64,000 bases of DNA from a virus. The notes beneath the pieces were generated by a model. That model had not been told where the DNA came from. It saw only the letters and a list, made by a program, of their open reading frames with translations, and did no database searches. Shown here one piece after another: positions 1,317 through 50,994 of this stretch. Numbering within the stretch: position 1 is the stretch's first letter; every line of letters begins with the position of its first letter. A program made the translations under genes and the position numbers. The stretch covers positions 1-64,000 of IMG/VR virus record IMGVR_UViG_3300035698_029335. One strand, given 5' to 3'.

Positions 1317-1317
1317 A

Positions 1318-2035: not shown

Positions 2036-2150
2036 ATTACCGCCTTACTAATCAGCTCAAAGCAACTATTATAGACCTCAACACTAAACATATGCAAGAA
2101 TCCTGTTTCTTTGCTCCTCGAGTTCTCCATAGTCATATTTATGTATGTTG

Positions 2151-2384
2151 CTATTCACTTTCACTGTCGCCCTTCTGTGCAGGAGATATCATCCAAAGGT
2201 CACTAGACCTCAAGTACTCAGCATTTCCTCGTGAAAAGCACACTTTATAACATGGCAATATATAGTGTTCCTTATAATCTTGCTCGATAACTATACCATA
2301 CTCTCCAGTGTCAAGCATTTCTACAAGATCACCAAATTCATAATCATAGTGCACCATGTTGCCCATCCACATCATACAGGTCAA
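2151..2384 (-). CDS. GDLV-family small protein
   Basis: YEFGDLVEM...YGIVIE...YKVCF...LWMIS. Confidence 0.6.
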   Translation of the reverse strand: MTCMMWMGNMVHYDYEFGDLVEMLDTGEYGIVIEQDYKEHYILPCYKVCFSRGNAEYLRSSDLWMISPAQKGDSESE

Positions 2385-2571
2385 AAAGTGTAGTGTTCAA
2401 TATGCCTGTATGAGAATTTGACCATACAACCTCGTAAGAGTTATTGTCGATCATACGAAGGACAAGTCCGACCAAAGGCTTGTCCTTCGCATGCGCTTGT
2501 GCTCGCTCTCCACTCCACATAGCACCAGTAAAGACTACTAAGTCACCAGGAGTGAACCTCTTACCCTTCAT
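2344..2571 (-). CDS. GDLV-family small protein
   Basis: FTPGDLVVF...VGLVLR...YEVVW. Confidence 0.6.
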   Translation of the reverse strand: MKGKRFTPGDLVVFTGAMWSGERAQAHAKDKPLVGLVLRMIDNNSYEVVWSNSHTGILNTTLFDLYDVDGQHGAL

Positions 2572-2851
2572 AGTAAGCTGTTAGATGCGCAGTGTCAGGT
2601 AGTGCTTCTTCATAGTCGTCATCGTTGTCGTCATAGGTTTCCGATTGCACAGCTTTTTCTAATTGTGTAAGCTCACACAAGTCGACCACCACTTTGATTC
2701 GGCTTTCGTCTTTCACTACCATTGCGCTTGTGCTGGTGCTGTCAACATTGATGATCGTGCCGTTAAAATGCTTTCGCGCATAGCAACCTCTACTTTCTTC
2801 AGTCAGTTCGTACCAAGCAACACGTCGATTAACCATATAGTGATGATACAT
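2561..2851 (-). CDS. Hypothetical protein
   Basis: RBS GGAG upstream; lies downstream of the promoter at 2888-2916. Confidence 0.5.
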   Translation of the reverse strand: MYHHYMVNRRVAWYELTEESRGCYARKHFNGTIINVDSTSTSAMVVKDESRIKVVVDLCELTQLEKAVQSETYDDNDDDYEEALPDTAHLTAYYEG

Positions 2852-2887
2852 CTTCTACTCCCTTTGTTTGTTCTTCGTTCCTGTTTT

Positions 2888-2916
2888 ACGATACAGATCT
2901 TTTTTCAACCTGTCAA
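2888..2916 (-). promoter_or_regulatory. Sigma70-type promoter (GATC-box variant)
   Basis: TTGACA-17-TATCGT with AGATCTG abutting the -10. Confidence 0.5.
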
Positions 2917-2986
2917 ATCCTATCGGCACATATTTGAGATCTGCTCTGCCGTCTTGTTGCTATAGATACTACCCTCTCCTCTACAA

Positions 2987-3277
2987 CTACAATTCGATGC
3001 TCGCATCGTAGGATGCTTCTTCGTCGATCTGGCTCTCGAATACATCTTCGCCCACCTTGACCGGCTCATTGACGACGACGACCACTGACGGATAATAAGA
3101 TCCGCGTCTTTGCTCTCGAATAGGAGGCTGCATTGCCCGGTTTGCTCTACGCGCAGCCATCGCCGTAGCGTGGCGCGACAAAACCGTGCCCCATTCGTCG
3201 CCTAGGACGTGCATTCGGGAGAGGAGCACAAAAGGAAGCTTGATTTCTGTCATAATTCCACCTTTAGCCGATGTCAT
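2987..3277 (-). CDS. Hypothetical protein, GC-richer than its surroundings
   Basis: Probable start MTEIKL after AAAGGTGG; has its own promoter at 3353-3381. Confidence 0.5.
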   Translation of the reverse strand: MTSAKGGIMTEIKLPFVLLSRMHVLGDEWGTVLSRHATAMAARRANRAMQPPIREQRRGSYYPSVVVVVNEPVKVGEDVFESQIDEEASYDASIEL

Positions 3278-3352
3278 CGGCTGATTTGACCACCTAGAGA
3301 AGCCTAGGCGTCTGATTCACTCGCTCACGCGAGTCGCTGTTTGGCTGTCCCT

Positions 3353-3381
3353 ACTCTAGCAGATCACATTGCGCTTGTCAA
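3353..3381 (-). promoter_or_regulatory. Sigma70-type promoter, GATC-box class
   Basis: TTGACA agcgcaatgtGATCtgc TAGAGT (17-nt spacer). Confidence 0.75.
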
Positions 3382-3458
3382 CAAACTAAGTGCAGCTGTT
3401 CCGATACGTTTGATGTTGATGGCTTTCGAGTTTTTCATTGAGGTCCTTTTCTTAAGTC

Positions 3459-3487
3459 ATCTTATCAGATCATTTTCTGCCTGTCAA
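3459..3487 (-). promoter_or_regulatory. Sigma70-type promoter, GATC-box class
   Basis: TTGACA ggcagaaaatGATCtga TAAGAT. Confidence 0.75.
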
Positions 3488-3678
3488 CCTTTCGCCGAAA
3501 GGATCTCAAAGCCCTCCCAGAAATAAAGATGATCTGGTTCCCAAAATCCAAACGGCATCGAGCTCTTTACACCAACCAGCTTAACGATGCCCAACCCCTT
3601 CCTTGCTTCATGCACTAGAGCAAGGTATGAGCCATCTTTTTTATATACCAAATCTCCAACTTCTAGACACACACACAT
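3484..3678 (-). CDS. GDLV-family small protein
   Basis: LEVGDLVYK...ALVHE...FEILSAK. Confidence 0.55.
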   Translation of the reverse strand: MCVCLEVGDLVYKKDGSYLALVHEARKGLGIVKLVGVKSSMPFGFWEPDHLYFWEGFEILSAKG

Positions 3679-3943
3679 CAGATAGCCGCTCGGCGCTGCT
3701 TCTTCTCTCTCGATTTAGCTTTGGCGCGATCTCTTTTCTCACCTATAGAGGAGATGCTTAGGTCGTCGTGACTGTCTGGGCGATGTCGTCGCCGCAATGG
3801 CTTTTCGCCATCTGCTTTTGCAGCTGCTTCTTCTCGTCGTTCGACCGTTGTCTTTGGTCGCCGAATATAGTGCTTATATCTCGTTCTTTGCATGCGTCGC
3901 CCCTCATAGAGCATTTGTATTAATTATGTCAACAAAAACCAAC

Positions 3944-10879: not shown

Positions 10880-12451
10880 TCATTTTACCTCCAGAACAGC
10901 ATGACTGGTAGTAATCAAAGTGCCAGCTACCGATACTGCGTTTTGCAGAGCAACTCTAGTAACCTTTACTGGGTCAATTATGCCAGCCTGGATCATGTCT
11001 ACAAGCTTACCAGTGGCTACATTATATCCTTTACCATCTCTACTCTTCAATACATCAACAATTGCCAACTCTGCATTACCGCAAGCATTAACAATCATTT
11101 GTCGCAATGGAGCCTCGCAAGCTTTACTGACTATCGATACGCCTAGAGACTGAACATCGTTATCTACTTTCAGCTTCTTCAATACGGAACTAGCACGCAA
11201 TAGAGCGGTGCCACCTCCCGCAACAATTCCTTCTTCTTGCGCCGATCTGACGGCAGAAAGTGCATCTTCAATTCGATGCTTCGTTTCAATCATTTCGACC
11301 TCTGTTGAGCCACCAACATGAATAACTGCTACACCACTAGCTAGCCTAGTTATCCGCTCTTGCAGCTTTTCGCATGTATGAAGGTCGTCGGTATGCGCGA
11401 TTTCGTTTTGCAGACTTTCAATGCGTTGAGATAGCTCCTCATCATCAAATTCACCACCGATAATAGTAGTAGTAAATAGGTTCGCTTCTAGCGTCTCACA
11501 AGTGCCAAAGTCACCAAGTTTTACACCCTTAAGATCGTTGCCTGTCACCTTTGTCATAAAGGTAGCACCAACTGCGCATGCTAAGTCTTCAAGGATGCTT
11601 TGTCTTTCGCTACCGAATGCAGGCGGTTTAATTGCAATGACCTTCAGTGTGCCCTTCACCGAGTTCGTGATAATAGAGGCGAGAGCAGCCTCAGCCACCT
11701 CATCTGCGATGATAACCAGCGGTCTCTTCTCCCTGGCTGCCAACTCAAGAGCAGGCATCATAGAGTCAACCTTAGTGATTTTTTCATCAGTAATAAGAAT
11801 TAACGGCTCACTGTATTTGACACTGCCAGTTCGCTCATTTGTTGCAAGTATCTTTGCTGCTAACCCACTTCTAATAGTGAACCCTTCAAGGAAAGACAAT
11901 TCGGTCTGTAAAGACTTTCCTTCTTTCACCGTAATACTACCATCTTTACCGACTGTATCGATTGCTTCTGCAATCACACTTCCAACAACATTATCATTGT
12001 TTGCTGATATTGTTGCAACATGCCTTAGGTCTTGTAGGGTTCGCACCGGGACTGCTTTTTCTTTTAGAGCCTCAACTAGTGCTGCTAGAGCCTTGTCCAT
12101 ACCACGTTTGAGTTCGATTGGCGGTGCACCTGCTGCTAGGTGTGGTTGAGCGGCAACCAATAACGCTCTTGCGAGAACTGTACTAGTAGTGGTTCCGTCG
12201 CCAACTGTATTGTTCGTTTCTTCTGCTGCCTGCTTGATTATTTGCGCACCTGCATCTTCAAAAGGATCCTCTAGGTCCACAAACCTACTAACAGTAACGC
12301 CATCTTTTGTCACTATAGGTCTCTTTCCTTCTTGCTGCAAAATGACATTTCGTCCGCGAGGACCCATTGTCGCTGCTACATTGTCAGCCAATTTGTTGAC
12401 ACCTGCGAGCGTCTTAGCCGTCAGGAGTTCGTTATCTAAAAATTCTTTCAT
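10880..12451 (-). CDS. groEL: Chaperonin GroEL
   Basis: TMGPRGRNV, VTKDGVTV, GDGTTT, GIVAGGG and GIIDPVKVTR; no GGM tail. Confidence 0.97.
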   Translation of the reverse strand: MKEFLDNELLTAKTLAGVNKLADNVAATMGPRGRNVILQQEGKRPIVTKDGVTVSRFVDLEDPFEDAGAQIIKQAAEETNNTVGDGTTTSTVLARALLVAAQPHLAAGAPPIELKRGMDKALAALVEALKEKAVPVRTLQDLRHVATISANNDNVVGSVIAEAIDTVGKDGSITVKEGKSLQTELSFLEGFTIRSGLAAKILATNERTGSVKYSEPLILITDEKITKVDSMMPALELAAREKRPLVIIADEVAEAALASIITNSVKGTLKVIAIKPPAFGSERQSILEDLACAVGATFMTKVTGNDLKGVKLGDFGTCETLEANLFTTTIIGGEFDDEELSQRIESLQNEIAHTDDLHTCEKLQERITRLASGVAVIHVGGSTEVEMIETKHRIEDALSAVRSAQEEGIVAGGGTALLRASSVLKKLKVDNDVQSLGVSIVSKACEAPLRQMIVNACGNAELAIVDVLKSRDGKGYNVATGKLVDMIQAGIIDPVKVTRVALQNAVSVAGTLITTSHAVLEVK

Positions 12452-16514: not shown

Positions 16515-16771
16515 TCACCAGCTTAATTTTACTTTTTGTCTGTGCATAAAATTATGCAACAAATGTCGCTGTATATAGCCATGATGAATGATAGCGCGTT
16601 TCGTGTCGCAAGACGTCTCGTATCCAGACGCGAATACCTGTCTGACGATGCCATCATGATACAGTTTTATGTCGGTAACCAGAAGGACAAATTGCCTTTA
16701 TGACCGATCAGATCATAATCCTTACTATAGATTAGATCTCCTATTTCAAGTATTTGGTAATCGGTATACAT
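16515..16771 (-). pseudogene. Frameshifted GDLV-family gene
   Basis: MYTDYQILEIGDLIYS...KG continues in another frame as FVLLVTDIK...KVKLSW. Confidence 0.4.
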
Positions 16772-16961
16772 ATGCTACTTATGCAGGTGTAAGGCGACCA
16801 TGAAAGAAAATACTTCTAGTCGGGTGACATTCTTCCAATAAGCCAGTACACAAGTTAACAAAGGTGTTGTTAACTCCGATTGTGGGACTGGTGCACAAAT
16901 ATTTATCTTTTTCTTTGTACATAAAATATCCTTTTTTCGTGTTGAGCCGCAGTGAGTTTTC

Positions 16962-16990
16962 AGTTTATCAGATCATTTTCTTTCTGTCAA
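16962..16990 (-). promoter_or_regulatory. Sigma70-type promoter, GATC-box class
   Basis: TTGACA gaaagaaaatGATCtga TAAACT. Confidence 0.7.
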
Positions 16991-17268
16991 GAGGCAAGAG
17001 CGGCTTTTGAAATTAAAGTCAACTCGCTTCTTAGGAAAAGCTGCGTCTTGGTATTGGTAGCCCATAATACTTCATACTGCGCAAAGAATCTCCTTACTCT
17101 TATTACCAATCCGGGGGTATTCTCGTACCCATACTCACCTGTCTTCACCAGGTCGCCAACTTGTAAGTTTAAGCTTTCTACTGTCATGATGGAGTTACCA
17201 CTTTCGATACAATTGTTGCTGAATAGTCCGATGGGTAAGATTATCAAATTCACTTTCCCACATTTCAA
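16987..17268 (-). CDS. GDLV-family small protein
   Basis: Probable start MTVESL; LQVGDLVKT...PGLVIRV...YEVLW...LTLISKA. Confidence 0.6.
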   Translation of the reverse strand: MKCGKVNLIILPIGLFSNNCIESGNSIMTVESLNLQVGDLVKTGEYGYENTPGLVIRVRRFFAQYEVLWATNTKTQLFLRSELTLISKAALAS

Positions 17269-23059: not shown

Positions 23060-24055
23060 TTATCCCAATAATTTAAGGTTGTGTCTTATGGAGCGCGTAC
23101 TAAAGCCCCACTGTTCATCATAATCTAGCTTTGCCATGTATGGTCTATTCATGTGCACAACATCCTTCTTCTTATCATAGCCCCAACACTTGATCCTCGT
23201 GACTGTGTTTGTTTCATCGATAGTTTCCAAGATGGCGTAATCTTTTCCTTTTGCCGTTTTCTTTAGAACAATAGCCTTAGGGATAAACCAAGTTAATTCC
23301 ATTACTGGATCATATTCAGCTATCGGAGGTACCTTATATGCTTCCAGACGTTCCCTCACTGCATCACTCAGTACCATAGCTATAGGATATATACCAGTTA
23401 ACTGAATAAGGTTCAGTATCCTCTCTTCTCTCGAAAAGTCGCCTTCAGGAGCGTACAATTTAATGTTGGCTTCCAGCTGGTCTTTGTTTCTTGGTCGATC
23501 GACTGCGACACACGACCAAAAATGCTTAGCCCCAGTGAACCTTTCATCAACTAGCTGCGCTAGCGCACCTGAACGGCACAATACATCTAAGTTGCCTTTG
23601 TTTAGTTTTCCGTATGAAACTCTTTCGTGGAAAAGCAACTCCTCAACGCTATTAAATGGTCGGTAATTAACTATCTCTTTAATCGCCGCATCACCAACAC
23701 CCTTTATAGAGCTGAGTGGTTGAATTAGTGTTTTGCTATCTTCTTCAGCAATTTCCCACTTTGAACCAGAGGCATTAATATCAAGACCTCTAATTTTATA
23801 ACCAAGACTCTTAATGATGTTGTTCGCTTCTTCTTTCTTTGCTTCGCCTTGAGCATCCAAATAAGCAGCCAGCCACTCTGATGGGTGATAAGTCATCAAC
23901 CAAGCACACTGATAAGAAACCATTGAATATGAAACGGCATGGCTATTCGAGGTCAATGTACCGTCAGTCAAATAAAATTGATGATCTTCGTGCTCTACCT
24001 CTAAGTCATAAGTGTCTATCTCGCCCATTTCTTCACAAGAAATTATCATCGCCAT
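23060..24055 (-). CDS. dnaE: DNA polymerase III alpha, C-terminal half, led by a split-intein C-fragment
   Basis: After ...LTSN: SHAVSYSMVSYQCAWL, DINAS, LSSIKGVG (HhH) and an OB-fold-like KTAKGKDY; RBS AGGAG. Confidence 0.93.
   Translation of the reverse strand: MAMIISCEEMGEIDTYDLEVEHEDHQFYLTDGTLTSNSHAVSYSMVSYQCAWLMTYHPSEWLAAYLDAQGEAKKEEANNIIKSLGYKIRGLDINASGSKWEIAEEDSKTLIQPLSSIKGVGDAAIKEIVNYRPFNSVEELLFHERVSYGKLNKGNLDVLCRSGALAQLVDERFTGAKHFWSCVAVDRPRNKDQLEANIKLYAPEGDFSREERILNLIQLTGIYPIAMVLSDAVRERLEAYKVPPIAEYDPVMELTWFIPKAIVLKKTAKGKDYAILETIDETNTVTRIKCWGYDKKKDVVHMNRPYMAKLDYDEQWGFSTRSIRHNLKLLG
23945..24055 (-). mobile_element. Split intein C-fragment (37 aa) of DnaE
   Basis: TYDLEV...HQFYL..GTLTSN|S (blocks F/G); +1 Ser; penultimate Ser in place of His. 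Confidence 0.92.
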
Positions 24056-24087: not shown

Positions 24088-24327
24088 TTACGTCGTATTA
24101 ATTCTTCTATTACTTCCAAGTGTTTTCGTTCGAATTCTTCTCTTCTGTAGTTGTATAAACTCACCCCTACGGATCAGTTTATATTGTATCACATATGTTT
24201 GCCCTTCATAGGAGAAACATGGAAGCTCCTGCAATATTTCAACGACAAGAACGAACTTGCCGCGAATATCATTAAAGCCAGACCAATTCGCACCTGTTAG
24301 CACTAAGTCGCCTACTTCGAACTTCAT
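24088..24327 (-). CDS. GDLV-family small protein
   Basis: MKFEVGDLVLTGANW. Confidence 0.6.
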   Translation of the reverse strand: MKFEVGDLVLTGANWSGFNDIRGKFVLVVEILQELPCFSYEGQTYVIQYKLIRRGEFIQLQKRRIRTKTLGSNRRINTT

Positions 24328-24665
24328 TCAATTGCCTTTATCTTCGTGGTTACATAGCCAATAGCCTGCCACTATCCATCATCACTAGTGTACCTTTGGC
24401 GACAAGAATTTTTGTCGTTTTCCTTCTTTTTGTCACCATGGCAACCAGCACCAGAAATATTCCATGCCTTTAATGCATTGAGATTCCTAGTTGCTGCAAT
24501 TTTATTCCTGCGTCTTTTCTTTTTTCTCTTTCCCACATGTCCCACCGGTCGCCATATCTTCGACGACCTTACAGTCATCACCTGAAAACTCTTCAGACCA
24601 ATGATCATTCCAGCTTTCACCAGTCAATTGTATGAGATCGCCGACCTGAAACATGTTTTTTGTCA

Positions 24666-24998
24666 TTATTTTGCCAAGGAGAAGGTGCCATAAACATTAT
24701 CACCGGTCTCATACTTCAACTCAAAGTCAACTGTTACCTCCTGATCGAACTCTAGTACCTCCATGATGATCGTCTTTGCTTTGCGATCATATTCCCAACC
24801 AGCTGCAGCGGAACCAGAACAACCAAGCCCTACGACTTCACCATCAGTATGCTCGAATGTGTGAGTTCCAGTGCTCAAGTTCTGTGCATTGAGACCGCTT
24901 TCGAGGAACATAAATTTAGCCATGTACATTTTCTCGCCGTTTGTCGTGACGAGACTAAACTCCTCGAAGCCATGTGAGTCTGTACACACCTTCTTCAC
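24666..24998 (-). CDS. Hypothetical protein
   Basis: 110-aa ORF with GTGA coupling. Confidence 0.5.
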   Translation of the reverse strand: MKKVCTDSHGFEEFSLVTTNGEKMYMAKFMFLESGLNAQNLSTGTHTFEHTDGEVVGLGCSGSAAAGWEYDRKAKTIIMEVLEFDQEVTVDFELKYETGDNVYGTFSLAK

Positions 24999-26317
24999 GC
25001 AACTACTTTTGAAATCAACTTGATGGTCTCACGTTTGTACAAATTGTTGTCGGTCGCGTGCACGTCTGGCGTACACCATTCAATTCTGTAAAATCGCATA
25101 GCATAAATAATTACTCCAATCACAATGCCATAACCTAGCCTGGCGAACCTTTCGCCTGAAGCATGTCTCACTAGGTCTCCAATATGAACTTTTCGCATCA
25201 CAAAACCTTTGTCTTAGCTATCAGAGAAAGGGAAGTTGCGCTTCTGGTGATAATGAGTTCTCCATACTCTAAGCGATACACAAGCTTGTTGTCCCAATAG
25301 TGTGACCTATATTTTTCTACAATTAGAAAAGGTCGAACTGTAGTTATGGGAACCCCGTCGTTCAGCCGCTCTTCATCAACCAAACAAACTAAATCACCAA
25401 TTTGAAAACTATAATCATCACAGTCATCATCACAGTCATGCATTGGGGTCCTTAAGTTGTAGAAACAAGTGAATCACAGGGCATTTCAATTCTCACAGCA
25501 CACTGATTAATGCGTTTTTCCATTATATGATTTCGCCGGGTATGTGCACCAGAACTGCATGCCTTCAAGTAGTTCACTTCTGTTCTTCCTGAAGCTCTCA
25601 ATAAATAAAGTCTTGCCTCACCTTTACCTAGCTGATAAGATACCATCACATTCATCATAACTTTTCTGCTTTCTGTATTAGGAGGAGCGGCTTGTTTGAG
25701 CCTTGTTGGTTGCCAAAGAGCGAATGTTTCTCGCCAAAGGCAACAACGTAAGTGAGATTTGTATCTGCATAGTTTTGATAGACAGAATCATACACACTAA
25801 TAACTACACCTATACCATGCTCATTGATCAATTTATTAGAGTATATACTTGAAAGAGATACTAAGTCGCCGACCTCTATTTCTTCCATTTTATCACCCTT
25901 TCGATATTTTATATTTCTTCCAGTTTCTGAGAGCGCCTCCGTATTCTTCTCGTTCGACTACTTCGCAGGTGCCATCAAAAGGACAACTCGTGCCTGAAAG
26001 TAAAACATATGAATCATTTATTCCATCTGTAGCAACTACTAGAAATCGACAAGTACCCGTGTCTTCATTAATATCAATGTCGCTGCTGTATATAAGGTCT
26101 CCAACTTTTAGATACATTCTTCTAGCTCCTTTACTCTCGCGACAAGTTTCAAACTAGAGCCTTTGTGGGTCCTATTTGAATAGGTTGAATGAGGTTTATT
26201 ATCTTGCCAGAGAATGATATATCTCTCGCCCTTAAAAGCAAAAGTAATTATGCCCAATGCATTGTTCAAAATGGGACTCTTCTTGCATACTAAATCGCCT
26301 ACTTTAAACATCAACAT
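24995..26317 (-). CDS. Cluster of five GDLV-family genes (24995-25201, 25198-25443, 25655-25888, 25893-26117, 26108-26317) plus one unrelated small ORF (25452-25658)
   Basis: Each has (I/V)GDL(V/I) near the N-terminus and most end in L.L(I/V)(S/A)K(V/A). Confidence 0.6.
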
Positions 26318-26667
26318 AATTATTCGTCCGACAAATTAATTGCCCGTACAACTCTTGCGACTGGGTTTGTAGCAGCAGCAATCAACTGAAGGTTTGTGGT
26401 TTTGATTGCGAAGCTTTAAGAAATGCCATACACAAACTCAAGCATAGGCAACTCTTCTTTGATCTGATGCTTATAGAGGCTATCTTTGGCTCGTGGGTGG
26501 TGGTCTGCTTTTAACTCAAAGCCATGCAAACCACACTTTCCAGACCACACTTTCCTAATGGCTTGCTCATCTGCAGAAGCAAAATAAATGTCGCCCATTG
26601 AAGACGTTCCAGTGCTATCGCACCGCCTAATCAAAACATACATACCCAGCACCCTTTCGTCTGCAAA

Positions 26668-29303: not shown

Positions 29304-29989
29304 TTACTTCTCTTCGTCTTCGTCTATACTTACTGCTCTGCCTTTAATTAATGACAAAGGCACCCGGCAGCTGCGACCTAAATTCTGTAAGTACACCTCA
29401 TATATACAGGTTAAATGTCCACCCACAACAGACGTATAAGGTCCTGAAAGAATGTACCCAACCCCAGCCACAAACTTTCCTTCTTCTTGCTTGTAAAGGC
29501 GACGTCGCATCGCGTGATCGCTCATGCTTATTTCGACCAAGTCACCTTCGTGATATACTTCTTTCATGCTAGTTCACCTTCGGAGAATACACAGCTCGCT
29601 AGTTTGATTCTAAGCTCACGAGTCATACAGGTCCCTCTTTTATTCCACAATACTTTAGCTAAGTGCAGTTGCTCTGCATAAGATACATGTTACCGATGAC
29701 AATACCTATGTCGCCCTTAGATCCCTCTTCCTCTTGTAGGAGCTGCACTAAGTCGCCGATGTTATATTGCACTTCAATCTCCTTCGGGTATATATACAGC
29801 TTTCGCTAGTTTGACGTATGAGGCGTTATCAATACAGTGAACAGTCTGCCCTTCTAGCTCTCCCCACGACACCCTAATATAACGATCGTGCATTATATCG
29901 ATGACAATACCTATATCACACACATGTTTTCCTTGCATGAAATACACTAAATCACCAACGCTATAGTGCACCTTTCTTTTCTTCATCAC
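29304..29989 (-). CDS. Three GDLV-family genes: 29304-29567, frameshifted ~29564-29772, and 29774-29989
   Basis: YHEGDLVEI; YNIGDLVQL...DIGIVI (frame breaks mid-gene); YSVGDLVYF...DIGIVI. Confidence 0.55.
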
Positions 29990-31427: not shown

Positions 31428-31456
31428 ATCGTAACAAATCATTCTCCTGTTGTCAA
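31428..31456 (-). promoter_or_regulatory. Sigma70-type promoter, GATC-box variant (GATT)
   Basis: TTGACA acaggagaatGATTtgt TACGAT. Confidence 0.6.
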
Positions 31457-31582
31457 CGCTTTGCTTATCATGGTGGCGGAATAGTCACAATGCCCACTAT
31501 TGAAAGTAATCTCTTCCATTGTACCGTCACTCATTGCGAAGAACGGGTCACCAATCTCAAACTGCATAAATACCTCCTTGCT

Positions 31583-31611
31583 AGGATATCAGATCATCTC
31601 ACTTCTGTCAA
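31583..31611 (-). promoter_or_regulatory. Sigma70-type promoter, GATC-box class
   Basis: TTGACA gaagtgagatGATCtga TATCCT. Confidence 0.7.
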
Positions 31612-31622
31612 CAACTACTCGT

Positions 31623-31650
31623 AAAGAAAAAGAGGGGCTTGCGCCCCCCT
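31623..31650 (-). terminator. Intrinsic terminator after the AAA ATPase gene
   Basis: AGGGG-gcgcaag-CCCCT followed by CTTTTTCTTT on the minus strand. Confidence 0.7.
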
Positions 31651-31671
31651 CAATCACCATTCAACTACTTC

Positions 31672-32814
31672 CTAGCTCTTAGCAGCTGCTTCTTCAGCCT
31701 CTTTCTTGGCTTGCATCCCAGTCAACAACTCACGAAGGTAAATAGAGACAGCTGTTTTCTTGCCATTAATAGTCACAGGTTGTGCATGCAAAGCAACAGT
31801 GTTTTCCGTCGGACCAACATTGAGTCCTCCCCAGATCTTCATGGCTGCTTCCGATGGCAAGGTGATGAAGTATTCACCAAGATTCTTGATCTGCTTCTTG
31901 GTCAACTTCTTAGCGAGCGACTCCATTGTTGCCATCTTCTCGATCAAGGTCAAGTGCTCAATAAGACCGTAGTCTTTAGTCAGCTCGAGCTTACCCTTGT
32001 CGATGATGTCAGCTGGCGACACTTGACGGTCATAAGATCCGAAGAAGTCTGAGAACGCACAGGCTGCTTCAAACCCTACATAGCCAAGAGACAGAAGACG
32101 AATCTTATCGCTCCACTCTTCGAGCAGCCCTGATTCTCGCATGGTGTCATTCAGACGCTTCCAGGAGCGTCGCGAAGGGTACTTCTTATTTGCCACGAAG
32201 TCATCCTTCGCGTTCTCAAGGTGAGGAATGTTCTGATTCACGAAATCAAGAACAACCTTGTCGAGGTTATTATGCCCCAGCTCTCTGCCATCGGCATCAC
32301 GAGCAGGAGCTTTGCCCCATTGCATCCAATCTTCAACAGAAGGAGAAATGTCGTATACAGTCCAGCGATCGAGTTCTGCCGGATCCATCTCACCAACTTG
32401 ATATTGTGCCCCCTCGTCACCCCCATTAACTGCCGCGACTACCAAAGTGTCCTTGTGTAGGGCAAAGCCGTTGAGCTTTCGCGAGTCAGTAAGCTCGAAG
32501 ATGCCTTGACGTACTTCGATTACGGCACGGTCAACTTCATCGAGGAACAACATTACTGGGCTGCAGCATGCATCTTTAAACCAGTCTGGCGGGTTCCAAG
32601 CCGTTGCTGCATCTTCAATAGTCGGCAACCCAACCAGGTCACCTTCAGTCATTTGTGAGGCACGTCGTTCGACGACGCGAAGACCAAGATCTGCAGCTGC
32701 TTGGTAGACGACCTCAGATTTACCAATTCCATGTCGACCACGGATCATTAGCGGGTGCTTTGCTTCAAATACGAATGGAGCGATTTCACGGAACGTAGCA
32801 AAGTCAATCTTCAT
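31672..32814 (-). CDS. MoxR-like AAA+ ATPase
   Basis: GRHGIGKS Walker A, GDLVGLP, LFLDEVDRA Walker B, MDPAELDRW and PSRRSW. Confidence 0.92.
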   Translation of the reverse strand: MKIDFATFREIAPFVFEAKHPLMIRGRHGIGKSEVVYQAAADLGLRVVERRASQMTEGDLVGLPTIEDAATAWNPPDWFKDACCSPVMLFLDEVDRAVIEVRQGIFELTDSRKLNGFALHKDTLVVAAVNGGDEGAQYQVGEMDPAELDRWTVYDISPSVEDWMQWGKAPARDADGRELGHNNLDKVVLDFVNQNIPHLENAKDDFVANKKYPSRRSWKRLNDTMRESGLLEEWSDKIRLLSLGYVGFEAACAFSDFFGSYDRQVSPADIIDKGKLELTKDYGLIEHLTLIEKMATMESLAKKLTKKQIKNLGEYFITLPSEAAMKIWGGLNVGPTENTVALHAQPVTINGKKTAVSIYLRELLTGMQAKKEAEEAAAKS

Positions 32815-32860
32815 TTCTCATCCTTTAGCAGAGAGTGGTTTGTTTGTCTCTCTTGGAACC

Positions 32861-32889
32861 AGTCTATCAGATCATTTCTAATGTGTCAA
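32861..32889 (-). promoter_or_regulatory. Sigma70-type promoter, GATC-box class
   Basis: TTGACA cattagaaatGATCtga TAGACT. Confidence 0.75.
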
Positions 32890-33025
32890 CGTTCCTGGTG
32901 GTGTTTTTTATTCTTCTTTATAAACAGATAGTTATGCGGCTGTAGCTCTTATTTCTGTTCCTCCACAGTTCCTCTTTAAGGCTGCGCAGGGGAATGATCA
33001 CTTTTGAGATCAAAAAAGCCAGACA

Positions 33026-33381
33026 TCAGCCTGGCAGTCTTCCGTCATATTTATCGAAGTCGCTTTCCCACATCTCCGCCACCGTATATCCTTGTTCTTG
33101 CAGAGCCTTTTTTCTTTTCAGCCACTCGTTGTGTAATGCACCATATTTTTTTTGACAACCGGGTTTGTTCCCTCAGCTAGGTATTTGTCTGGCGAGTGTG
33201 CCGAGCGCACATTGGGCAACCTGCTGCACTACTTATGTGATTGCTAGGTGATTGCATAAAGACTCCGTGTTCTAAGCACACTATCTTTACTTTTGTGCGC
33301 GCCCTTGTAGTCAGTCAAATTATAGTTATAAGTGCCTTTGTGCACTAACCTAGCTCGTTTGATAAACTCATCTGTAGTCAT
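33026..33381 (-). pseudogene. Decayed paralog of the homing endonuclease at 17195-18415
   Basis: MTTDEFIKRARLVH...(frameshift) KVKIVCLEHGVFMQSPSNH...GCPMC...(deletion) KYGALHNEWLKRKKALQEQGYTVAEMWESDFD; the catalytic D...E region is missing. Confidence 0.85.
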
Positions 33382-33392
33382 TGTTCTCCTAC

Positions 33393-34472
33393 TCATTCTT
33401 GATCCCACTTCCTGAACATCGAGACCTGATACCAGTCATCATCCTGGGTGGTGTACTTCTGACATGTGACATACTCTCCATTCCATTGGAAGGCTGGAGC
33501 GCCGTCGCCCCATTGTACAGCCATCGCAACGATAAGTTTAAATTCTCCTTTGAGACCAAAGTTCGCCCAACTTTCCCCTGTCAATTGTACAAGATCACCT
33601 ATTTCAATTTCTTGTTCACTCATGGGATGTATACATTACTTACAATGGTGGCTGAGTAGTCTTCGTAGCCACTTACGTAAGTTTCTTTACAATAAATGCT
33701 CAGGTAGTCGTAGATGTTGCCACTATCATAAGCAATTCTCGGGTGCTTCCCCACACCAATGATAAGTGTCATTGTGTTGTACAACTCTGGAAAGTCACTC
33801 CGCCATGTAAGCCCAGTCAACTGCACAAGATCACCTATTTCGAATTCTTGCTCTTTCATGGTTTATATACTTTGCTTACAATAGTGGCTGCCCACCTTTC
33901 ATTGACGTAATACAATTCGCCATTGTTAATAAACGCTGGTCCAAACATGTCTGATGTTGTTAATAATACAACGCTATCTTTAAGTTCTCCCCACCAATCT
34001 GCACCAGTTAATCTTACCAAGTCTCCTATTTCAAACTCTTGTTTTTTCATGGTCTACATACCTTACTTACAATAGTGGCTGAGAAGTCGGTTTCGTATTC
34101 ATCATAATAATAAATACTCCAGGTTTGCCGACAGGTCGAGAATGAGCCAACTGGAAATACCGGATCACCTTCAGCGTCATAACCAGTAATTCTGACCAGT
34201 CAGAATTACCAGGTCACCTATTTCAATTTTTTGTTCACTCATGGATTGTATACCTTACTTACAACTGTAACTTCCCATTCCTCGCCAACATAATATTTTT
34301 CACAATCAATAGGATCACAAAAACATGGCTGATAGGAGTTATTGAGTGACGTTATCAATACAGTTTTGTTTTTAACTTCTTCCCACCAAGCATCACCAGT
34401 CAATTGTACAAGATCACCTATTTCAATTTCTTGCTCTTTCATGGTTTATATACTTTGCTTACAATAGTGGCT
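33393..34472 (-). repeat. Tandem array of five ATGA-coupled GDLV mini-genes joined by ~77-bp direct repeats
   Basis: Repeats at ~33577-33653, 33813-33889, 34004-34080, ~34196-34270 and 34396-34472; genes 33393-33623, 33620-33859, 33856-34050, 34047-34242 (frameshifted) and 34239-34442. Confidence 0.9.
34047..34242 (-). pseudogene. Array cassette interrupted by a 13-nt insertion
   Basis: MSEQKIEIGDLV... and ...FSATIVSKVCRP are in different frames; the span is 196 nt = 183 + 13. Confidence 0.8.
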
Positions 34473-35121
34473 ATAGTTTATACTTTTTAATGTCGCGCTC
34501 CTCTACCGTTACAGCACAAGTTCCACCAACAGGCATCAAGAGGTATTTTTTCGCCCCCATTGCATGAGATGTTGGGACCTGGTGGTTAGAAGCAACGACG
34601 AGAGCGGCTTTCCACTCTGCAATATCTTTGAGGTGCTTCTTCAGAGTAACAAGCGCACCATCAGCGAACTTTGGCTTTTCAGTGTATGCTATATAATAGC
34701 CTTCTGCGTACTTGCTGTGCACAAATTGCTTGTAAGTTCTCCTTGGCACAACATAGTCTTCTTCTTCAAAAATCCTGCTTATTAGTGCGCCCCAATAGCC
34801 AGTCTGATTGAGTTTGTTTGTCTCAAAGTAGAACTTAGCCATGATCATTGCACGTGGTCGCAATTCTGTTAAGTAATCACGCTTGTGCTTTTCTTCAAGC
34901 GCTAAGTAAGCCGGAGCGGTAGTTTCTTCGATTTTCTCAAAAGTTTTCATTTGCGCGTAGCTGAGATCACCATATTTTCGAAGAGTTTGCTCAATAGACT
35001 CAAGAAATTTCTTGTTCCACTCCGAAGTGTTGTCGGAGAGGGCTTCTGCTGTGTTTTGAATTCTCTCAAGGATCTGGTCAGGCATTCTAAACTCCTCTGT
35101 ATGTATACTCCATCTTATCAC
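34471..35121 (-). CDS. Hypothetical protein with SH3-like C-terminus
   Basis: 216-aa ORF; KFADGALVTL...ALVV...YLLM...VEERDIKK. Confidence 0.55.
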   Translation of the reverse strand: MIRWSIHTEEFRMPDQILERIQNTAEALSDNTSEWNKKFLESIEQTLRKYGDLSYAQMKTFEKIEETTAPAYLALEEKHKRDYLTELRPRAMIMAKFYFETNKLNQTGYWGALISRIFEEEDYVVPRRTYKQFVHSKYAEGYYIAYTEKPKFADGALVTLKKHLKDIAEWKAALVVASNHQVPTSHAMGAKKYLLMPVGGTCAVTVEERDIKKYKL

Positions 35122-35360
35122 GGATCACTTTGAGAGTCAACCTCCATTTCCTCGCACGCCACCAACAAGCGCAGGCAGCGCAGCGCTATGTATTGTGGTC
35201 TCCTGGCTTTTCGAAACTTAACTACAAACCATGCCGATGGTAATACTGGCTTCTCAGTGACTACGCCGACGTCGCTCTGCAAATACCCAAAGAGACTGGT
35301 CGAATATTTGTCATCAGCTATGCATACCAAGTCGCCAACACTAATATCTTCTCGGTTCAT
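35118..35360 (-). CDS. GDLV-family small protein
   Basis: ISVGDLVCI...VGVVTE...VVKF...LRLL. Confidence 0.6.
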   Translation of the reverse strand: MNREDISVGDLVCIADDKYSTSLFGYLQSDVGVVTEKPVLPSAWFVVKFRKARRPQYIALRCLRLLVACEEMEVDSQSDP

Positions 35361-36244
35361 AGTTCACGCTCACGCACTTTACTTGCAAGAGTGGCTGTAT
35401 AATCGATCGCGTATTTGTGGACCCTAATCAATAGAATGTCTTTGGTAGCTACATACTTTTCGAGCATCAGATCTTTCTTTTGTACAACTTCAAGCTGCCC
35501 ATGTATTTCTCTAAAATGATGTGGACCATCAACTTCTATTATCACCTTCATCCTTTTCGCATATATATCTATTTGCTTTCTCGACGTCAAGTTCATATCG
35601 AATAATACACTTTTTATCTGCCTGTTACTCTTAAAATCATATGTCGGAAATCTTTCCTTAATGTACATATACATCCACTTCTCTGGTTTAGACTTATACT
35701 TGTGCATTTGCTTTATACATTTGTTGTAGAAATCTTCTGGATTTTCTTTCCTCCATCGAGCAAGTACTTCAGCTCTCTTGTCTTGCACATCTTGTCTGGC
35801 TGAAGTTTTCATTGCTGTCTTTGAAGCACGTTCTCTAAAATCCTCTCTTTTGTTCAGATTCCCAAGGAGTCTTGAGCGGCGAAGCCTCTCGGCAGGATTA
35901 GCCATTATCGATTTTGTTACAACTTGACCCATCCTAAGTTTTGCCTTCTCGGTCATGGTTTCATACCCCATCTCTTTACATCTGCTATTACTGCAGTTGT
36001 GCTCCTCCTTATAGTGTGGCGACAAATCGGCAGATACAAAGCTGCACAACTCACACGCTATAAGGTCTCCCAATTCTACACCCCTTTCCTTACAAAGCTC
36101 ACAAACGTATCTGTGATTGAAGAAAGCCTTTATACTGTATAGTTCATAATCGCAAGCTACAGCAGTTCCAAACCTCTCTTCGCAATCTCTCTTATTGGCA
36201 GCTTTTCTCCGCATTTTGTCCTGAATTTGTGATCTTTCGTGCAT
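35357..36244 (-). mobile_element. Free-standing Vsr/DUF559-like homing endonuclease next to the dnaE N-fragment
   Basis: SKPEK...QIDIY....VIIEVDGPHHF...KKD...LIRV; N-terminal CxxC...HxxxxH; start uncertain. Confidence 0.75.
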
Positions 36245-36453
36245 CTTATTACTCTCCCGTCACTTAAAGTATACTTATACACTTTTTTGACGCCGTTTTT
36301 ATGTCTCTTTTTGACAGGGAGAAAAATATCCTTTTTCGTCTTTTCAGAGCGCGAACGCACAATATCACCTGGCAGTACGTCAATAATCCTCTTATCACAC
36401 AAAACATCACCACCGTCACTATAAATAGTAACCAGTTCATCAAAGTGCAAGCA
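36157..36453 (-). mobile_element. Split intein N-fragment (98 aa) of DnaE
   Basis: CLHFDELV (block A), GRVIRCTKDHKF (block B TxxH), then stop. Confidence 0.93.
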
Positions 36454-39036
36454 AGCGTTGAAACCATAGCCAGCCCATAGCTCGCAGGAATGATACAACT
36501 TTTCTGCATCCATCTTACTAATTCCTTTTTCAATGCAGCCATCAATAAACTTCGGCTTAATCTCAGCCAACACCTTGTCTGCTTTGCCAGTACCCTTCTT
36601 AGTTAATACCTTTCTGAAGATGTTTCCGTCGTTCAGCGAAATACCTTTGCCAAGCTTGTGTGCCAATAATGCGATTTGTTCTTGAAACACAAGGAACCCA
36701 TAAGTATCTTCGGTAACTTCTTTATGTAGTGGATGCAAATACTCAATTGAAGATGGGTCTTTTCTTGCTTCAATATACAACTTATCCACCTTCATACCCA
36801 ATGCAGCTGGTCGAAAGATAGAAGTGACTGCTGAAATATCAGTGATATTGGTAGGCTTTACTTTTGTGCAAAACTTCTGTGCTCCTTCACCTGTAAATTG
36901 AAAGATGCCAGCCCACTTGCCTTGATGGAACACTTCTTCATATACTCTTTGATCGTCCACGTCCAAAACATCTGGGTGTAGATTTTCATCATAATACTTC
37001 CTAACATCCTCAAAAGAAGGTCTCTTGATGCCGCGTGTGCGCTGCAGAATTCTCCTTGTCGCACCATCGATCATCTCTAAAGTAGACAAACCTAAGATGT
37101 CGAACTTAATAAAGCCCATAGGTTCCAAGTGCCTAACATTTTGACCTTCACTCCACGGCGTTTGACGTACACCCTTGCCGCTGATTAGTGGCATGTATTT
37201 GTTTAAGTCTTCTCCAATAACGCAGCCACCAGCATGCTTTGACTGACTACGAATGGAGCCGTAAAGTGCATCAATATACACTTCCACTTGTGGGTGTTTA
37301 ACTAGAAACTTGTTAAGCGTATCACTGTATTTTTTGATTTCCTCAAAAGTAGGCACATATATACCAGTCTTTATGCCATTAGCTTTTTTAGCAGCTGGTG
37401 TTGCCTCTGAAATCATCTTACCGGTCACAACATTGACCTCAGCAAAAGGTATATCATAAAGCTTCGAGATGTCTTTGACTAACGATTTCAGTTGCAAAGT
37501 ATTCCAGTTGGTAATAGGTACCACTCGGTTCTCGCCCCAATCTTCGATAAGCAAATCTTTCAATTCTGATGGATTTGAAACATCATAATCGATATCAGGC
37601 ATATCAACTGCATCCGCACGCAAGAAGCGTTCGAATTGTAGGTTGTATTTTATAGGATCAATCTGCGTAATACCAAGCGCATATGCCACGATGCTACCAG
37701 CTGCAGAGCCTCGCCCAGGAGCAGTTAATTGTACTTTTACAGCCTTATCTGCAATAGCATTCATTGTCAAGAAGTATTTTGCAAAATTAAGCTTAGAGAT
37801 TACCCCTAGTTCGTACTCAATTCTGTTCGTGTATGCGTTAGATATACGATATATCCTTTTCTTGCTTTTGTTCTTAATACTGAAGACCTTTTTCAGTCCT
37901 ATCCCAACCAGCTCTTTTAGTTCTTCATCAGCCGTTTTACCTTCAGGCACAACAAAGTCAGGCAAACGAATTGTTGTGTCTGGCGCAAAATCTTCGATTA
38001 CGTCATGAGCAATACTGTGTGTTAACTCGATGGATTTTAGCACCAAGTCATCATCATATTTAATGTCCAAATCTTTCGTATATTTCTTGTACGCTTCCCA
38101 CATCTGATTGCCGTTTTTAGGATACAATTCATACCCAACTTCTTCAACAGTCGAAGGGATATCTTCGATGGACGCGCCCTTGCCTCCCATCCAGCCCAAC
38201 TTCTTGTATACTAGTCGTGACTGCCATGCTTCGGGGCTAGGGTAGTGGCTGTCAGCTGTAGAGATTAGTTGTACTCCAAACTCCTTAGCCACCTTAATTA
38301 CTAATTGATTAATTTCGTGTTGTTCAGGAATTGCATTCCACTGCAGCTCTGCATACCATCTATCACCAAAAATACCTTGCATCCTTCGTGTAGTTTCGCG
38401 CATTGCCTCTAGGACTGTTTCCTCCCCTTCCTCTCTATGCAACCAATAATCTTGAGCATAAATTCCACCCATACAAGCCGATGTTGCAATAACGCCTTCG
38501 CTGTGCTTCTCCAACAGAGCATAGTCAATGCGAGGGAAGCGATAAAAGTTCTTCTCAGTGTAGGATTGTGAAATAATCTGAAAGAGGTTGTTTAACCCTG
38601 TTTGGTTTTGCGCCAACAGGATCATATGCGCTCTTCTGTTTACTATGTTTTTATTACTTTTTTTAGTTTCTTCTTCATCTTCGATAGTAGCGCCAATAGA
38701 TGAACCTTCATCTTTCTTTTTTCTACCTTTCTTAGTTTTATTTTCTTCCGCAATCCGCTCTTTGTCGAGCTTCCATTGTGTTAGGTCTGGGTGGAAGTAA
38801 GCCTCTACACCATAGATTGCCTTAAACTCTTTACCAGCTTCTTTCATCTTCTTGGTATGCAATACTTGCTCTACTAGACCGTTCATATGCCCATGGTTTG
38901 TGATAGCCATAGCATCTCCTCCGTTTTGATAACAAAAATCAAGATGTTGATCAGTAGGACCAAACCCGTCAAAAATTGAATATCCGTCATGAGCATGCAA
39001 ATTGACATATGGGATTTTAGAAACTGTTCTTTTCAT
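36157..39036 (-). CDS. dnaE: DNA polymerase III alpha, N-terminal half (PHP plus polymerase core), ending in a split-intein N-fragment
   Basis: NLHAHDGYSIFDG, TADSHY, GRGSAAGS, FERFL, MPDIDYD, KHAGG, IKFDILGL, GIFQF and WAGYGFNA|C. Confidence 0.96.
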   Translation of the reverse strand: MKRTVSKIPYVNLHAHDGYSIFDGFGPTDQHLDFCYQNGGDAMAITNHGHMNGLVEQVLHTKKMKEAGKEFKAIYGVEAYFHPDLTQWKLDKERIAEENKTKKGRKKKDEGSSIGATIEDEEETKKSNKNIVNRRAHMILLAQNQTGLNNLFQIISQSYTEKNFYRFPRIDYALLEKHSEGVIATSACMGGIYAQDYWLHREEGEETVLEAMRETTRRMQGIFGDRWYAELQWNAIPEQHEINQLVIKVAKEFGVQLISTADSHYPSPEAWQSRLVYKKLGWMGGKGASIEDIPSTVEEVGYELYPKNGNQMWEAYKKYTKDLDIKYDDDLVLKSIELTHSIAHDVIEDFAPDTTIRLPDFVVPEGKTADEELKELVGIGLKKVFSIKNKSKKRIYRISNAYTNRIEYELGVISKLNFAKYFLTMNAIADKAVKVQLTAPGRGSAAGSIVAYALGITQIDPIKYNLQFERFLRADAVDMPDIDYDVSNPSELKDLLIEDWGENRVVPITNWNTLQLKSLVKDISKLYDIPFAEVNVVTGKMISEATPAAKKANGIKTGIYVPTFEEIKKYSDTLNKFLVKHPQVEVYIDALYGSIRSQSKHAGGCVIGEDLNKYMPLISGKGVRQTPWSEGQNVRHLEPMGFIKFDILGLSTLEMIDGATRRILQRTRGIKRPSFEDVRKYYDENLHPDVLDVDDQRVYEEVFHQGKWAGIFQFTGEGAQKFCTKVKPTNITDISAVTSIFRPAALGMKVDKLYIEARKDPSSIEYLHPLHKEVTEDTYGFLVFQEQIALLAHKLGKGISLNDGNIFRKVLTKKGTGKADKVLAEIKPKFIDGCIEKGISKMDAEKLYHSCELWAGYGFNACLHFDELVTIYSDGGDVLCDKRIIDVLPGDIVRSRSEKTKKDIFLPVKKRHKNGVKKVYKYTLSDGRVIRCTKDHKFRTKCGEKLPIREIAKRGLELL

Positions 39037-49830: not shown

Positions 49831-50994
49831 TTATTCTACCTGTAGAGCTTCACCAACACCGTCATTAAAATAGTCCTCGGCTTTACCAAGGCGCTGATCG
49901 AATTTTAGTATTATTTCTTCTTCTACAATCTCATTTACGCGTGCAACGAAAGAGGGGTCTGTCTTCATAAGTTCCACAAATTTCTTGTCACCTTGCCACT
50001 TCCTGAATTCAGTACCATCCTTATTAAGAAGCGTACCCCAGGTGCCACCAATGTAATACTCTGAACCTTTAATCGCCAGCAAAATGGACTCTTCGTCCAT
50101 TATGCCAACATGATCGCCCCAAAGAATCTTGAACTCCGCAAACCTATCCTGTGTTCCAAATCTAGACTTGACTAAACTTGCCTTAACATAAGAGCCGACT
50201 CTATAATCGTTATCATCGAACACGTTCTGCTTGTTGGAGGTCGAACTAGTAAGCCAGATCCTTAGAGACGTTGCGTATACTGGTGTTTTTCCGCCAGGAG
50301 TAGTATACTTCTGCGTCATTTTAGCATACTTAGCGCCGCCTTGCACTGAAGCCATCCCATCAATATTTGCCTTCAATTGATTCAATAATAGAACCGTACC
50401 ATCATTATCACTTAATGGATTGATGATCTTGGAGAAAGCCTTGCTCAAGACACGTGCTTTCACGCCCACACTTGAGTTTGGATTCATATCTCCTTCCACA
50501 TCTGACTTGGTCGGTGCCATCGCAACTGAGTCGAGAATGAAGAGAAACTTCATTTCTTTTATTTGCAGAAACTGTTCTATTACTTCCAAAAATGTTTCAA
50601 GATTTTCTGGAACCATCAATTGTATTTTAGATATATCTATTCCAGCAGCTTCCAGAAATTCAGTATTTATGGCGCGTTCGAAGTCGGCATATATTGGCGT
50701 AATTCCCATCTCTATTGCATTTTTGGCTATTTGTACTGCCATATAACTCTTACCAGTGGACGATAGACCGGCTAACTCTGTTACTCGTCCAACCGGAATA
50801 CCTGCTTTTTTACCCCTACAAATAGCAGAATCTAGCCATGTCGAACCAGTGGGAATCCACTCTTTCACATCTGCTAGATTTTCCCCCTCTAAAAGGTCTG
50901 CGGATATCTTCGAGCCCGCTATTTTGTCAGCCATCTTGCGTAGCTGTGACATATCTATCTTTCCTGGCGCTACTTTTTCTTTCTTTTTTCTCAT
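49831..50994 (-). CDS. recA: RecA/UvsX-like recombinase
   Basis: IPTGS..LD, GIPVGRVTELAGLSSTGKS, ILDSVA, LNQL and TPGGK. Confidence 0.93.
   Translation of the reverse strand: MRKKKEKVAPGKIDMSQLRKMADKIAGSKISADLLEGENLADVKEWIPTGSTWLDSAICRGKKAGIPVGRVTELAGLSSTGKSYMAVQIAKNAIEMGITPIYADFERAINTEFLEAAGIDISKIQLMVPENLETFLEVIEQFLQIKEMKFLFILDSVAMAPTKSDVEGDMNPNSSVGVKARVLSKAFSKIINPLSDNDGTVLLLNQLKANIDGMASVQGGAKYAKMTQKYTTPGGKTPVYATSLRIWLTSSTSNKQNVFDDNDYRVGSYVKASLVKSRFGTQDRFAEFKILWGDHVGIMDEESILLAIKGSEYYIGGTWGTLLNKDGTEFRKWQGDKKFVELMKTDPSFVARVNEIVEEEIILKFDQRLGKAEDYFNDGVGEALQVE

Follow-up and report, generated by a model that had tools for sequence, protein, structure and literature searches.

A tandem array of small paralogous genes with conserved coding junctions in an uncultured phage

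Organization of the array

The DNA analysed here (the window) is the first 64 kb (64,000 nucleotides, nt) of a 77-kb virus record of IMG/VR, IMGVR_UViG_3300035698_029335, which is estimated to be about 43% complete; the same DNA is also present in salt-lake metagenome runs. On the minus strand, from 34472 down to 33393, lies an array of five head-to-tail mini-genes, c1 to c5, in which each boundary is an ATGA overlap between the stop codon of one gene and the start codon of the next. A preliminary description of this DNA had reported five mini-genes joined by a direct repeat that spans each ATGA. The layout and the overlaps hold, but one of the five, c2, is not intact and carries a +1 frame break. 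The units of the array and the features bordering it are as follows (aa, amino acids).

34471..35121, minus strand: upstream gene of 216 aa, belonging to no known family; its stop touches c0
34443..34472, minus strand: c0, an orphan family tail (ATIVSKVYKP followed by TGA) that lacks a gene body; the translation-initiation region of c1 lies within it
34239..34442, minus strand: c1, 67 aa, intact; mosaic, with a c4/c5-like head and a c3-like core
34047..34242, minus strand: c2, pseudogene with a frame break
33856..34050, minus strand: c3, 64 aa, intact; modelled as a small six-strand β barrel
33620..33859, minus strand: c4, 79 aa, intact, with longer loops
33393..33623, minus strand: c5, 76 aa, the last unit; its head is that of the family, and its tail (YQVSMFRKW) has diverged but still forms the last strand in the model
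33018..33035, minus strand: terminator-like hairpin and T run, a consensus match only

The transcription unit to which the array belongs is likely to end at this hairpin. At the other extremity, c0 begins at the TAG stop of the 216-aa gene, in a different frame. The preliminary description had pointed to a bodiless first tail abutting the stop of an unrelated gene, and this is indeed what lies there: 10 of 10 scorable codons of c0 are identical to those of the c3 tail, and the DNA is the same from AGCCAC through ATGA.

The last codons of the 216-aa gene itself (AAAAAGTATAAACTATAG, KKYKL followed by the stop; window 34471-34490, minus strand) are similar to those with which the family tail closes (GCAAAGTATATAAACCATGA, SKVYKP followed by the stop). 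That this end might be a second, older tail remnant was left unproven, because the hidden Markov model (HMM) of the family does not match the 216-aa gene.

The reality of this arrangement was examined in Logan contigs from four runs of different samples collected in 2017-2018; such contigs drop rare variants. Wherever they cover the window, the contigs of all four runs are identical to it, with no joints, other letters or loose ends. It could be argued that the array is an assembly artefact in which repeats were wrongly collapsed or expanded, so that the copy number or the c2 frameshift would not be real: short-read graphs break at every junction, and the depth of the phage is low (about 3-7x). 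Against this, every core is unique and covered by contigs reaching both flanking junctions, one contig (X1 record 4) covers c3, c2 and c1 without interruption (33860-34433), and another (X3 record 17) spans the c2 break. The artefact explanation is thus hardly credible; the sole point that short contigs do not fix is the order of the blocks on either side of the identical runs of 45 and 35 nt described below.

The head of c2 is in frame for 20 codons (MSEQKIEIGDLVILTGQNYW), after which a +1 frame break occurs near 34181; the rest of the unit, including a normal family tail (SATIVSKVCRP), is read in the +1 frame. Since the two contigs mentioned above, which come from two runs, confirm the break with 0 differences, and since no intact c2 protein occurs in collections of 5.8 billion protein sequences or 1.8 billion protein representatives, c2 is a real pseudogene. 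Programmed +1 frameshifting at this position (UUA UGA C) was also considered and rejected: no upstream Shine-Dalgarno-like stimulator is present and, as judged from the sequence, +1 re-pairing would be poor.

Conserved junctions between units

A repeat search returned a single family of five 87-nt copies centred on the overlaps, with 74-84% identity to the reference and a spacing of 191-236 nt.

34386..34472, minus strand: junction c0/c1, containing the 77-nt patch 34396-34472
34186..34272, minus strand: junction c1/c2
33994..34080, minus strand: junction c2/c3
33803..33889, minus strand: junction c3/c4, partner of the 77-nt patch
33567..33653, minus strand: junction c4/c5, with a 35-nt identical run in common with the c1 head

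The tail motif occurs four times in the window and the head motif three times, compared with none in 100 shuffles. The strongest similarity is that between 33813-33889 and 34396-34472, for which recomputation reproduced exactly the figures first given: 4 of 77 nt differ (73 are the same), and the two copies share an identical run of 45 nt. The junction DNA repeat was not found outside the five-unit array; the other clusters of the family in the genome lack it.

The junctions are coding. Each comprises the last strand of one protein (DYSATIVSKV) and the first strand and turn of the next (FEIGDLVQLTGxxW). In two tails, AAGG stands about 10 nt before the next ATG. The tail DNA would therefore double as the ribosome-binding region of the following gene and, since it would hold this region as well, would be doubly constrained; the ATGA overlaps would couple translation of successive units. 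No structural signal common to the junctions could be detected. The consensus fold of the five copies reaches only -4.68 kcal/mol with a covariation term of +0.48, so that no helix or hairpin is supported. None of the promoter-like sites coincides with all junctions, and their number (12 found versus 8.9 expected) is at the level of shuffled sequence.

Homology of the cores and predicted fold

The preliminary description had also regarded the cores between the junctions as lacking DNA similarity, and as unrelated. At the DNA level the first statement is accurate for most pairs, whose identity of 30-44% is near random. It does not extend to c1 and c3, which share 55% identity in core DNA and 55% protein identity over their full length, and a single HMM derived from the four intact copies can be aligned with every one of them over positions 1-74.

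Structure prediction contradicts the second statement. The AlphaFold (AF2) model of c3 is all-β with six strands (predicted local distance difference test, pLDDT, 93.4), and that of c5, the most divergent copy, has the same six-strand order (pLDDT 84.8), only the loop lengths being different. The cores are thus homologous, of the same fold, and not unrelated. In these models the conserved head corresponds to strand 1 and the following turn, and the conserved tail to the last strand.

The predicted fold of the unit is a generic SH3-like or KOW-like small β barrel. The best VIA match is the KOW domain of Spt5 (Z 7.0, a value that by the tool's own rating possibly reflects just a common arrangement; root-mean-square deviation 2.3 over 57 residues), followed by NdhS (Z 6.4) and PsaE (Z 6.2). 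DUF4314 and KOW proteins appear among the structural neighbours in the Atlas, at the level of structure only, and Foldseek against PDB and BFVD returned only weak SH3-like rows (E >=0.01). The KOW, Tudor, PsaE, NdhS, YorP and DUF4314 barrels resemble the array proteins in fold and size, and a GD-x-V first strand is typical of this class. The array family differs from them by its LTG-x-x-W turn and DYSA-x-LV last strand, which define an unnamed family with no significant Pfam, PHROG or PDB sequence match. In Pfam at E values up to 1, c3, c4 and c5 have no match and c1 has chance-level matches only; the PDB sequence search likewise indicates no family. There is hence no significant match to the KOW (PF00467) or DUF4314 (PF14192) profiles.

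A family signature shared with distant homologues

An exhaustive profile search of 1.84 billion cluster representatives identified ten proteins outside this genome. They come from unrelated assemblies, differ widely in composition, and are all unnamed. The profile search gave the following domain contents.

P0013: 73 aa, single domain
P0015: homologue outside this genome
P0010, P0012, P0014 and P0007/P0016: two or three domains in one chain
P0006: 493 aa, metagenomic, six domains in one chain
P0009: 1056 aa, several domain copies

The head (F-x-V-G-D-x-V-x-L-T-G-x-x-W) and the tail (D-Y-S-A-x-L-V) both bound the domain in these distant metagenomic proteins. In nine of the outside homologues, 25 head motifs of the form G-D-x-V/I-x-L/F/Y-x-G-x-x-W were counted, together with 14 tail motifs (Y/W-x-A/V-x-L/I-V) located 46-65 residues after a head. 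Since these homologues come from other metagenomes, exchange with the array cannot be the cause of their heads and tails, and because the same head and tail bound the domain there, the ends of the array units are kept by protein constraint. The conserved ends of the array are thus the signature of a protein domain, made up of its predicted first and last strands.

The domain is found in two arrangements, as coupled mini-genes that remain separate and as a tandem repeat inside one gene, with six or more copies in one chain in P0006 and P0009. The existence of homologues with two to six fused domains raises the question of whether the array is in fact one tandem-repeat protein like P0006, either broken up or read through by frameshifting. 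However, each unit starts from an ATG of its own with a short MKEQE leader, and its stop overlaps the ATG that follows; because neighbouring units lie in different frames, reading through them would take four -1 shifts, and no slippery heptamer is present in the junction CCATGA. Gene callers in several assemblies also recovered separate small proteins. A fragmented or recoded multi-domain gene is extremely unlikely.

Members of the family elsewhere in the genome

A six-frame scan with the head motif (hydrophobic-x-hydrophobic-G-D-L-V/I) gave 2 matches on the plus strand and 25 on the minus strand. Of the latter, 24 are small open reading frames (ORFs), with the motif near the ORF start, and the remaining one falls within the large polymerase gene. 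The head-motif ORFs form clusters at about 800-3700 (808-3714), 16670-17268, 24091-26335, 29662-29989 and 31442-35363, and nine family members passed jackhmmer inclusion. Because the junction DNA repeat was not found outside the five units, the array is the youngest cluster of an old and large multigene family of the phage. Members and remnants outside the array include the following.

31442..31567, minus strand: collapsed paralogue of 41 aa, with head and tail and almost no core; equipped with an AGGAGG ribosome-binding site of its own and with a promoter-like site
24505..24666, minus strand: head-only paralogue (QVGDLIQLTGESW) with an unrelated Lys/Glu-rich end
24091..24327, minus strand: paralogue of the LTG-W subfamily
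35118..35360, minus strand: distant member of 80 aa with the head ISVGDLV, ATGA-joined to the upstream endonuclease gene
35357..36244, minus strand: HNH endonuclease gene (phrog_559), the last residues (DYTATLASKV) and DNA of which are a family tail

The first two of these had been noticed before, as a collapsed copy at about 31445-31567 and an N-terminal half at about 24610-24666, and both are found as genes. The end of the HNH gene has about 22 of 30 nt in common with the array tail (manual count); it looks as if an endonuclease had replaced the 5' part of a family member.

DNA exchange between units

Protein constraint does not account for all of the similarity between junctions. For identical residues, codon identity was compared with that expected from the phage's own codon usage. 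The 10/10 identical codons of the c0 and c3 tails compare with 3.6 expected (P=2e-5), and the c1-c4 and c1-c5 heads share 11 of 14 codons where about 5.5 are expected (P about 0.002). For the c3-c4 and c3-c5 heads codon identity is at chance, and there is therefore no general nucleotide-level constraint on the head. Conservation of synonymous sites beyond what the protein requires is thus present in the c0-c3 tail and the two pairs of heads involving c1, but absent from the two involving c3.

The 77-nt patch common to the c0/c1 and c3/c4 junctions has sharp borders, identity falling to 21/60 towards the cores and 8/30 upstream. The longest identical run between junction copies is 11-17 nt in all pairs except c0/c1 with c3/c4 (45 nt) and c0/c1 with c4/c5 (35 nt); in a run-length simulation, a run of 45 nt has a probability of about 3e-5 at 75% identity over 95 nt. 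Moreover, c1 is a mosaic: its head sides with c5 over c3 at 11 of 16 informative sites and its core with c3 at 31 of 40 (Fisher p=0.002).

These patterns show that at least two DNA-level exchanges, both limited to the junctions, took place, one seen in the 77-nt patch and the other in the c5-like head of the c3-like c1. Traces of this kind are left by short-tract gene conversion or unequal crossing-over, and are to be expected when tandem paralogues are carried by a phage with a RecA-family recombinase. The gene for the latter, which the preliminary description had proposed as a candidate catalyst, is present.

49831..50994, minus strand: RecA-family recombinase (PF00154, 109.6 bits)

The block c1-c3 is flanked by the two near-identical patches, which is what either block duplication or circle integration through a junction would leave.

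It is possible to go further and to suppose that the array is actively and adaptively shuffled by general homologous recombination, the identical stretches of 35-45 nt being hot spots at which blocks are deleted, duplicated or circularised and the resulting variants used by selection. The precedent is found in the PeSLs of T4-type phages, repeats between which recombination deletes or inserts genes and generates mini-circles (Arbiol et al. 2010, PMC2839356; PMC4122927). The sharp patch around c1-c3, the mosaic c1 and the RecA-family gene would all fit this possibility, as would P0001, a protein on a 576-nt contig of another assembly that corresponds to c5 with a c1-type start (MKEQ in place of MSEQ) and is what a crossover within the 35-nt run common to c1 and c5 would be expected to yield. 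However, because 31-mer graphs break exactly at these repeats, P0001 could equally be a true deletion recombinant or an assembly chimera. The identity of the contigs of the four runs, with no joints, also speaks against active shuffling, although contigs cannot show rare variants; so do the depth of the 45-mer unitig, about 2x that of the neighbouring unitigs, the value to be expected with two copies in each genome, and the single, identical c1, c3 and c4 proteins found in all public assemblies. On balance, ongoing adaptive shuffling appears unlikely.

A more specific proposal by analogy is that the coding junctions act like PeSLs placed inside reading frames, the phage machinery excising, duplicating and reinserting in-frame, translationally coupled mini-genes, including as small circles. 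This is improbable; if true, the population would contain many combinations of binding modules, and P0001 would be the first recombinant seen.

Comparison with known systems

The array resembles integrons and the arrays of clustered regularly interspaced short palindromic repeats (CRISPR) only in that repeats alternate with variable segments. The preliminary description had interpreted this likeness as a recombination-driven cassette system. Taken to its conclusion, the idea would be that each junction is a site comparable to an attC or a CRISPR repeat, at which a specific enzyme swaps unrelated coding cores in frame. The way in which conserved segments alternate with variable ones, and the orphan tail with which the array begins, could be seen in this light, but the features that define such systems fail.

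With regard to integrons, the tyrosine recombinase profile PF00589 has no match in the 77-kb record (about 43% complete), whereas the control genomes all matched, and no attC-like hairpin is formed at the five junctions. No serine recombinase or resolvase matched in the 77-kb record, nor did the reverse transcriptase (PF00078) that would characterize a diversity-generating retroelement; the absence of integrase and reverse transcriptase originally noted for the window therefore extends to the whole 77-kb record. With regard to CRISPR, the array repeats are coding and just 74-84% alike, and the segments between them are homologous; no cas genes turned up, although no cas-specific search was made. 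As an integron, a CRISPR array or a diversity-generating retroelement, the array fails in each case on the defining features tested. Added to this, the conserved ends are a protein signature of the family in unrelated genomes, the junction has no conserved secondary structure, and the other clusters of the family in this genome have no DNA repeat. A dedicated cassette system is very unlikely. What remains of the original proposal is junction-confined exchange, visible in the 77-nt patch and the mosaic c1.

The nearest described behaviour is that of the lpl cluster of Staphylococcus aureus. In this cluster a conserved DNA segment recurring in tandem paralogues is the inferred site of homologous recombination, the evolving unit is offset from the ORF, and adjacent segments yield conflicting phylogenies (Tsuru and Kobayashi 2008, PMC2568036). 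The array likewise consists of same-strand tandem paralogues in which conserved DNA alternates with variable DNA, and c1, with its c5-like head and c3-like core, can be compared with the discordant lpl segments. In lpl, however, the conserved segment lies in the middle of the ORF and the variable unit spans the intergenic region, whereas in the array the conserved segment spans the stop/start overlap and the middle of the ORF is variable. The array genes are also four to five times smaller than lpl and are carried by a phage.

Among phages, the nearest precedent for repeat-mediated shuffling is the PeSLs, which resemble the array in that small accessory genes, located in a plastic part of the genome of a large lytic phage, have short conserved repeats on either side. 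The deletions, insertions and mini-circles described for PeSLs correspond to the behaviour that the preliminary description had proposed for the array. The PeSL is a non-coding promoter and stem-loop terminator located between unrelated ORFans, whereas the array repeat is coding and lies between paralogues. No sigma-70-like early promoter with a stem-loop terminator was found inside the repeat: neither promoters nor stem-loops exceed chance in the array, and no circles or variants were seen in contigs, which drop rare variants.

Neighbouring genes

Downstream of c5, and ATGA-joined to it, a decaying gene resembling a homing endonuclease appears to be spread over at least three frames (MSRRTMTTDEFIKRARLVHKGTYNY, KVKIVCLEHGVFMQSPSNHISSAAGCPMCA, GYTVAEMWESDFDKY; window 33026-33396, minus strand), an identification made from the look of the sequence. 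Two ORFs 12 kb apart each match part of the DNA polymerase profile phrog_405, and the mini-gene region lies between these halves. The window also encodes a phage GroEL-type chaperonin.

36157-39036, minus strand: 959-aa ORF, phrog_405 positions 38-793
23060-24055, minus strand: 331-aa ORF, phrog_405 positions 793-998
10880-12451, minus strand: GroEL-type chaperonin (phrog_5725, E 1.6e-141)

Probable origin and possible role of the array

The observations as a whole are best explained if the array is the youngest cluster of phage-encoded small (about 60-80 aa) SH3-like β-barrel paralogues, the conserved ends of which reflect the fold signature together with ordinary gene conversion; this explanation is considered probable. 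Several properties of a tandem paralogue cluster under concerted (birth-and-death) evolution are present: homology over the full length, segments with different nearest relatives, and pseudogene or truncated members (c2, c0, the collapsed copy and the head-only copy). The array would have grown by unequal homologous recombination between the conserved ends and would have been partly homogenised by short-tract gene conversion, both through the general functions of the phage (RecA family) and with no dedicated enzyme. The c0 orphan tail and the tail fused to the HNH gene would be remnants of members in which insertion or deletion replaced the 5' part. The mini-proteins would be co-expressed from an accessory region beside replication genes, and each may act as a single-domain binding module in which the first and last strands (β1/β5) form a fixed scaffold and the loops vary.

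Several points weigh against this explanation or limit it. None of the array members has a match in Pfam or PHROGs. Short blocks (16 and 11 codons) and ten pairwise comparisons underlie the tests of synonymous sites and of mosaicism, and of the results only those for the c0-c3 tail and the 45-nt run withstand multiple testing. The conservation of the junctions could, alongside gene conversion, owe something to nucleotide-level selection on translation-initiation regions. P0001, if a true recombinant, could make the repeats more active than an occasional exchange implies.

Finally, the phage records and the viral and metagenome contigs examined contain no close relative in which copy number and order could be compared. 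DNA searches with the region in near and distant mode among 50,697 phage records returned nothing, nor did tblastn with c3; viral contigs gave no match to the 216-aa gene, the four-copy profile, P0006 or the junction DNA pattern, and two scans of metagenome contigs were negative, although the record to which the window belongs may itself be masked in these contig collections. In 17 more distant phages, reached via a neighbouring AAA ATPase (45-59% identity), only generic small genes of the GDLV type were seen, with no LTG-W array.

Because the family is large and its decay products (c2, c0, the collapsed and the head-only copies) are present, rapid birth and death is indicated, as is typical of accessory genes engaged with the host. 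It is tempting to speculate that the family proteins are diversified binding modules for host takeover or counter-defence, directed at host or phage macromolecules, but this role is a guess and rather doubtful.

The array is an ordinary young tandem cluster, and its domain an unnamed family. It provides a clean worked example of how a repeat-spacer appearance can arise from a first- and last-strand signature with gene conversion on top. The domain bounded by the head and tail, still without a name, exists singly in mini-proteins and, in metagenomic proteins, repeated in tandem 2-6-fold; the presence of about 24 small head-motif ORFs in one phage suggests diversifying small binding modules. In this large uncultured phage, the 77-nt patch with its sharp borders and the mosaic c1 form a footprint of short-tract recombination that is datable. 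Should the repeats prove active in populations, repeat-mediated gene shuffling of the PeSL type would be extended to coding, frame-preserving junctions.

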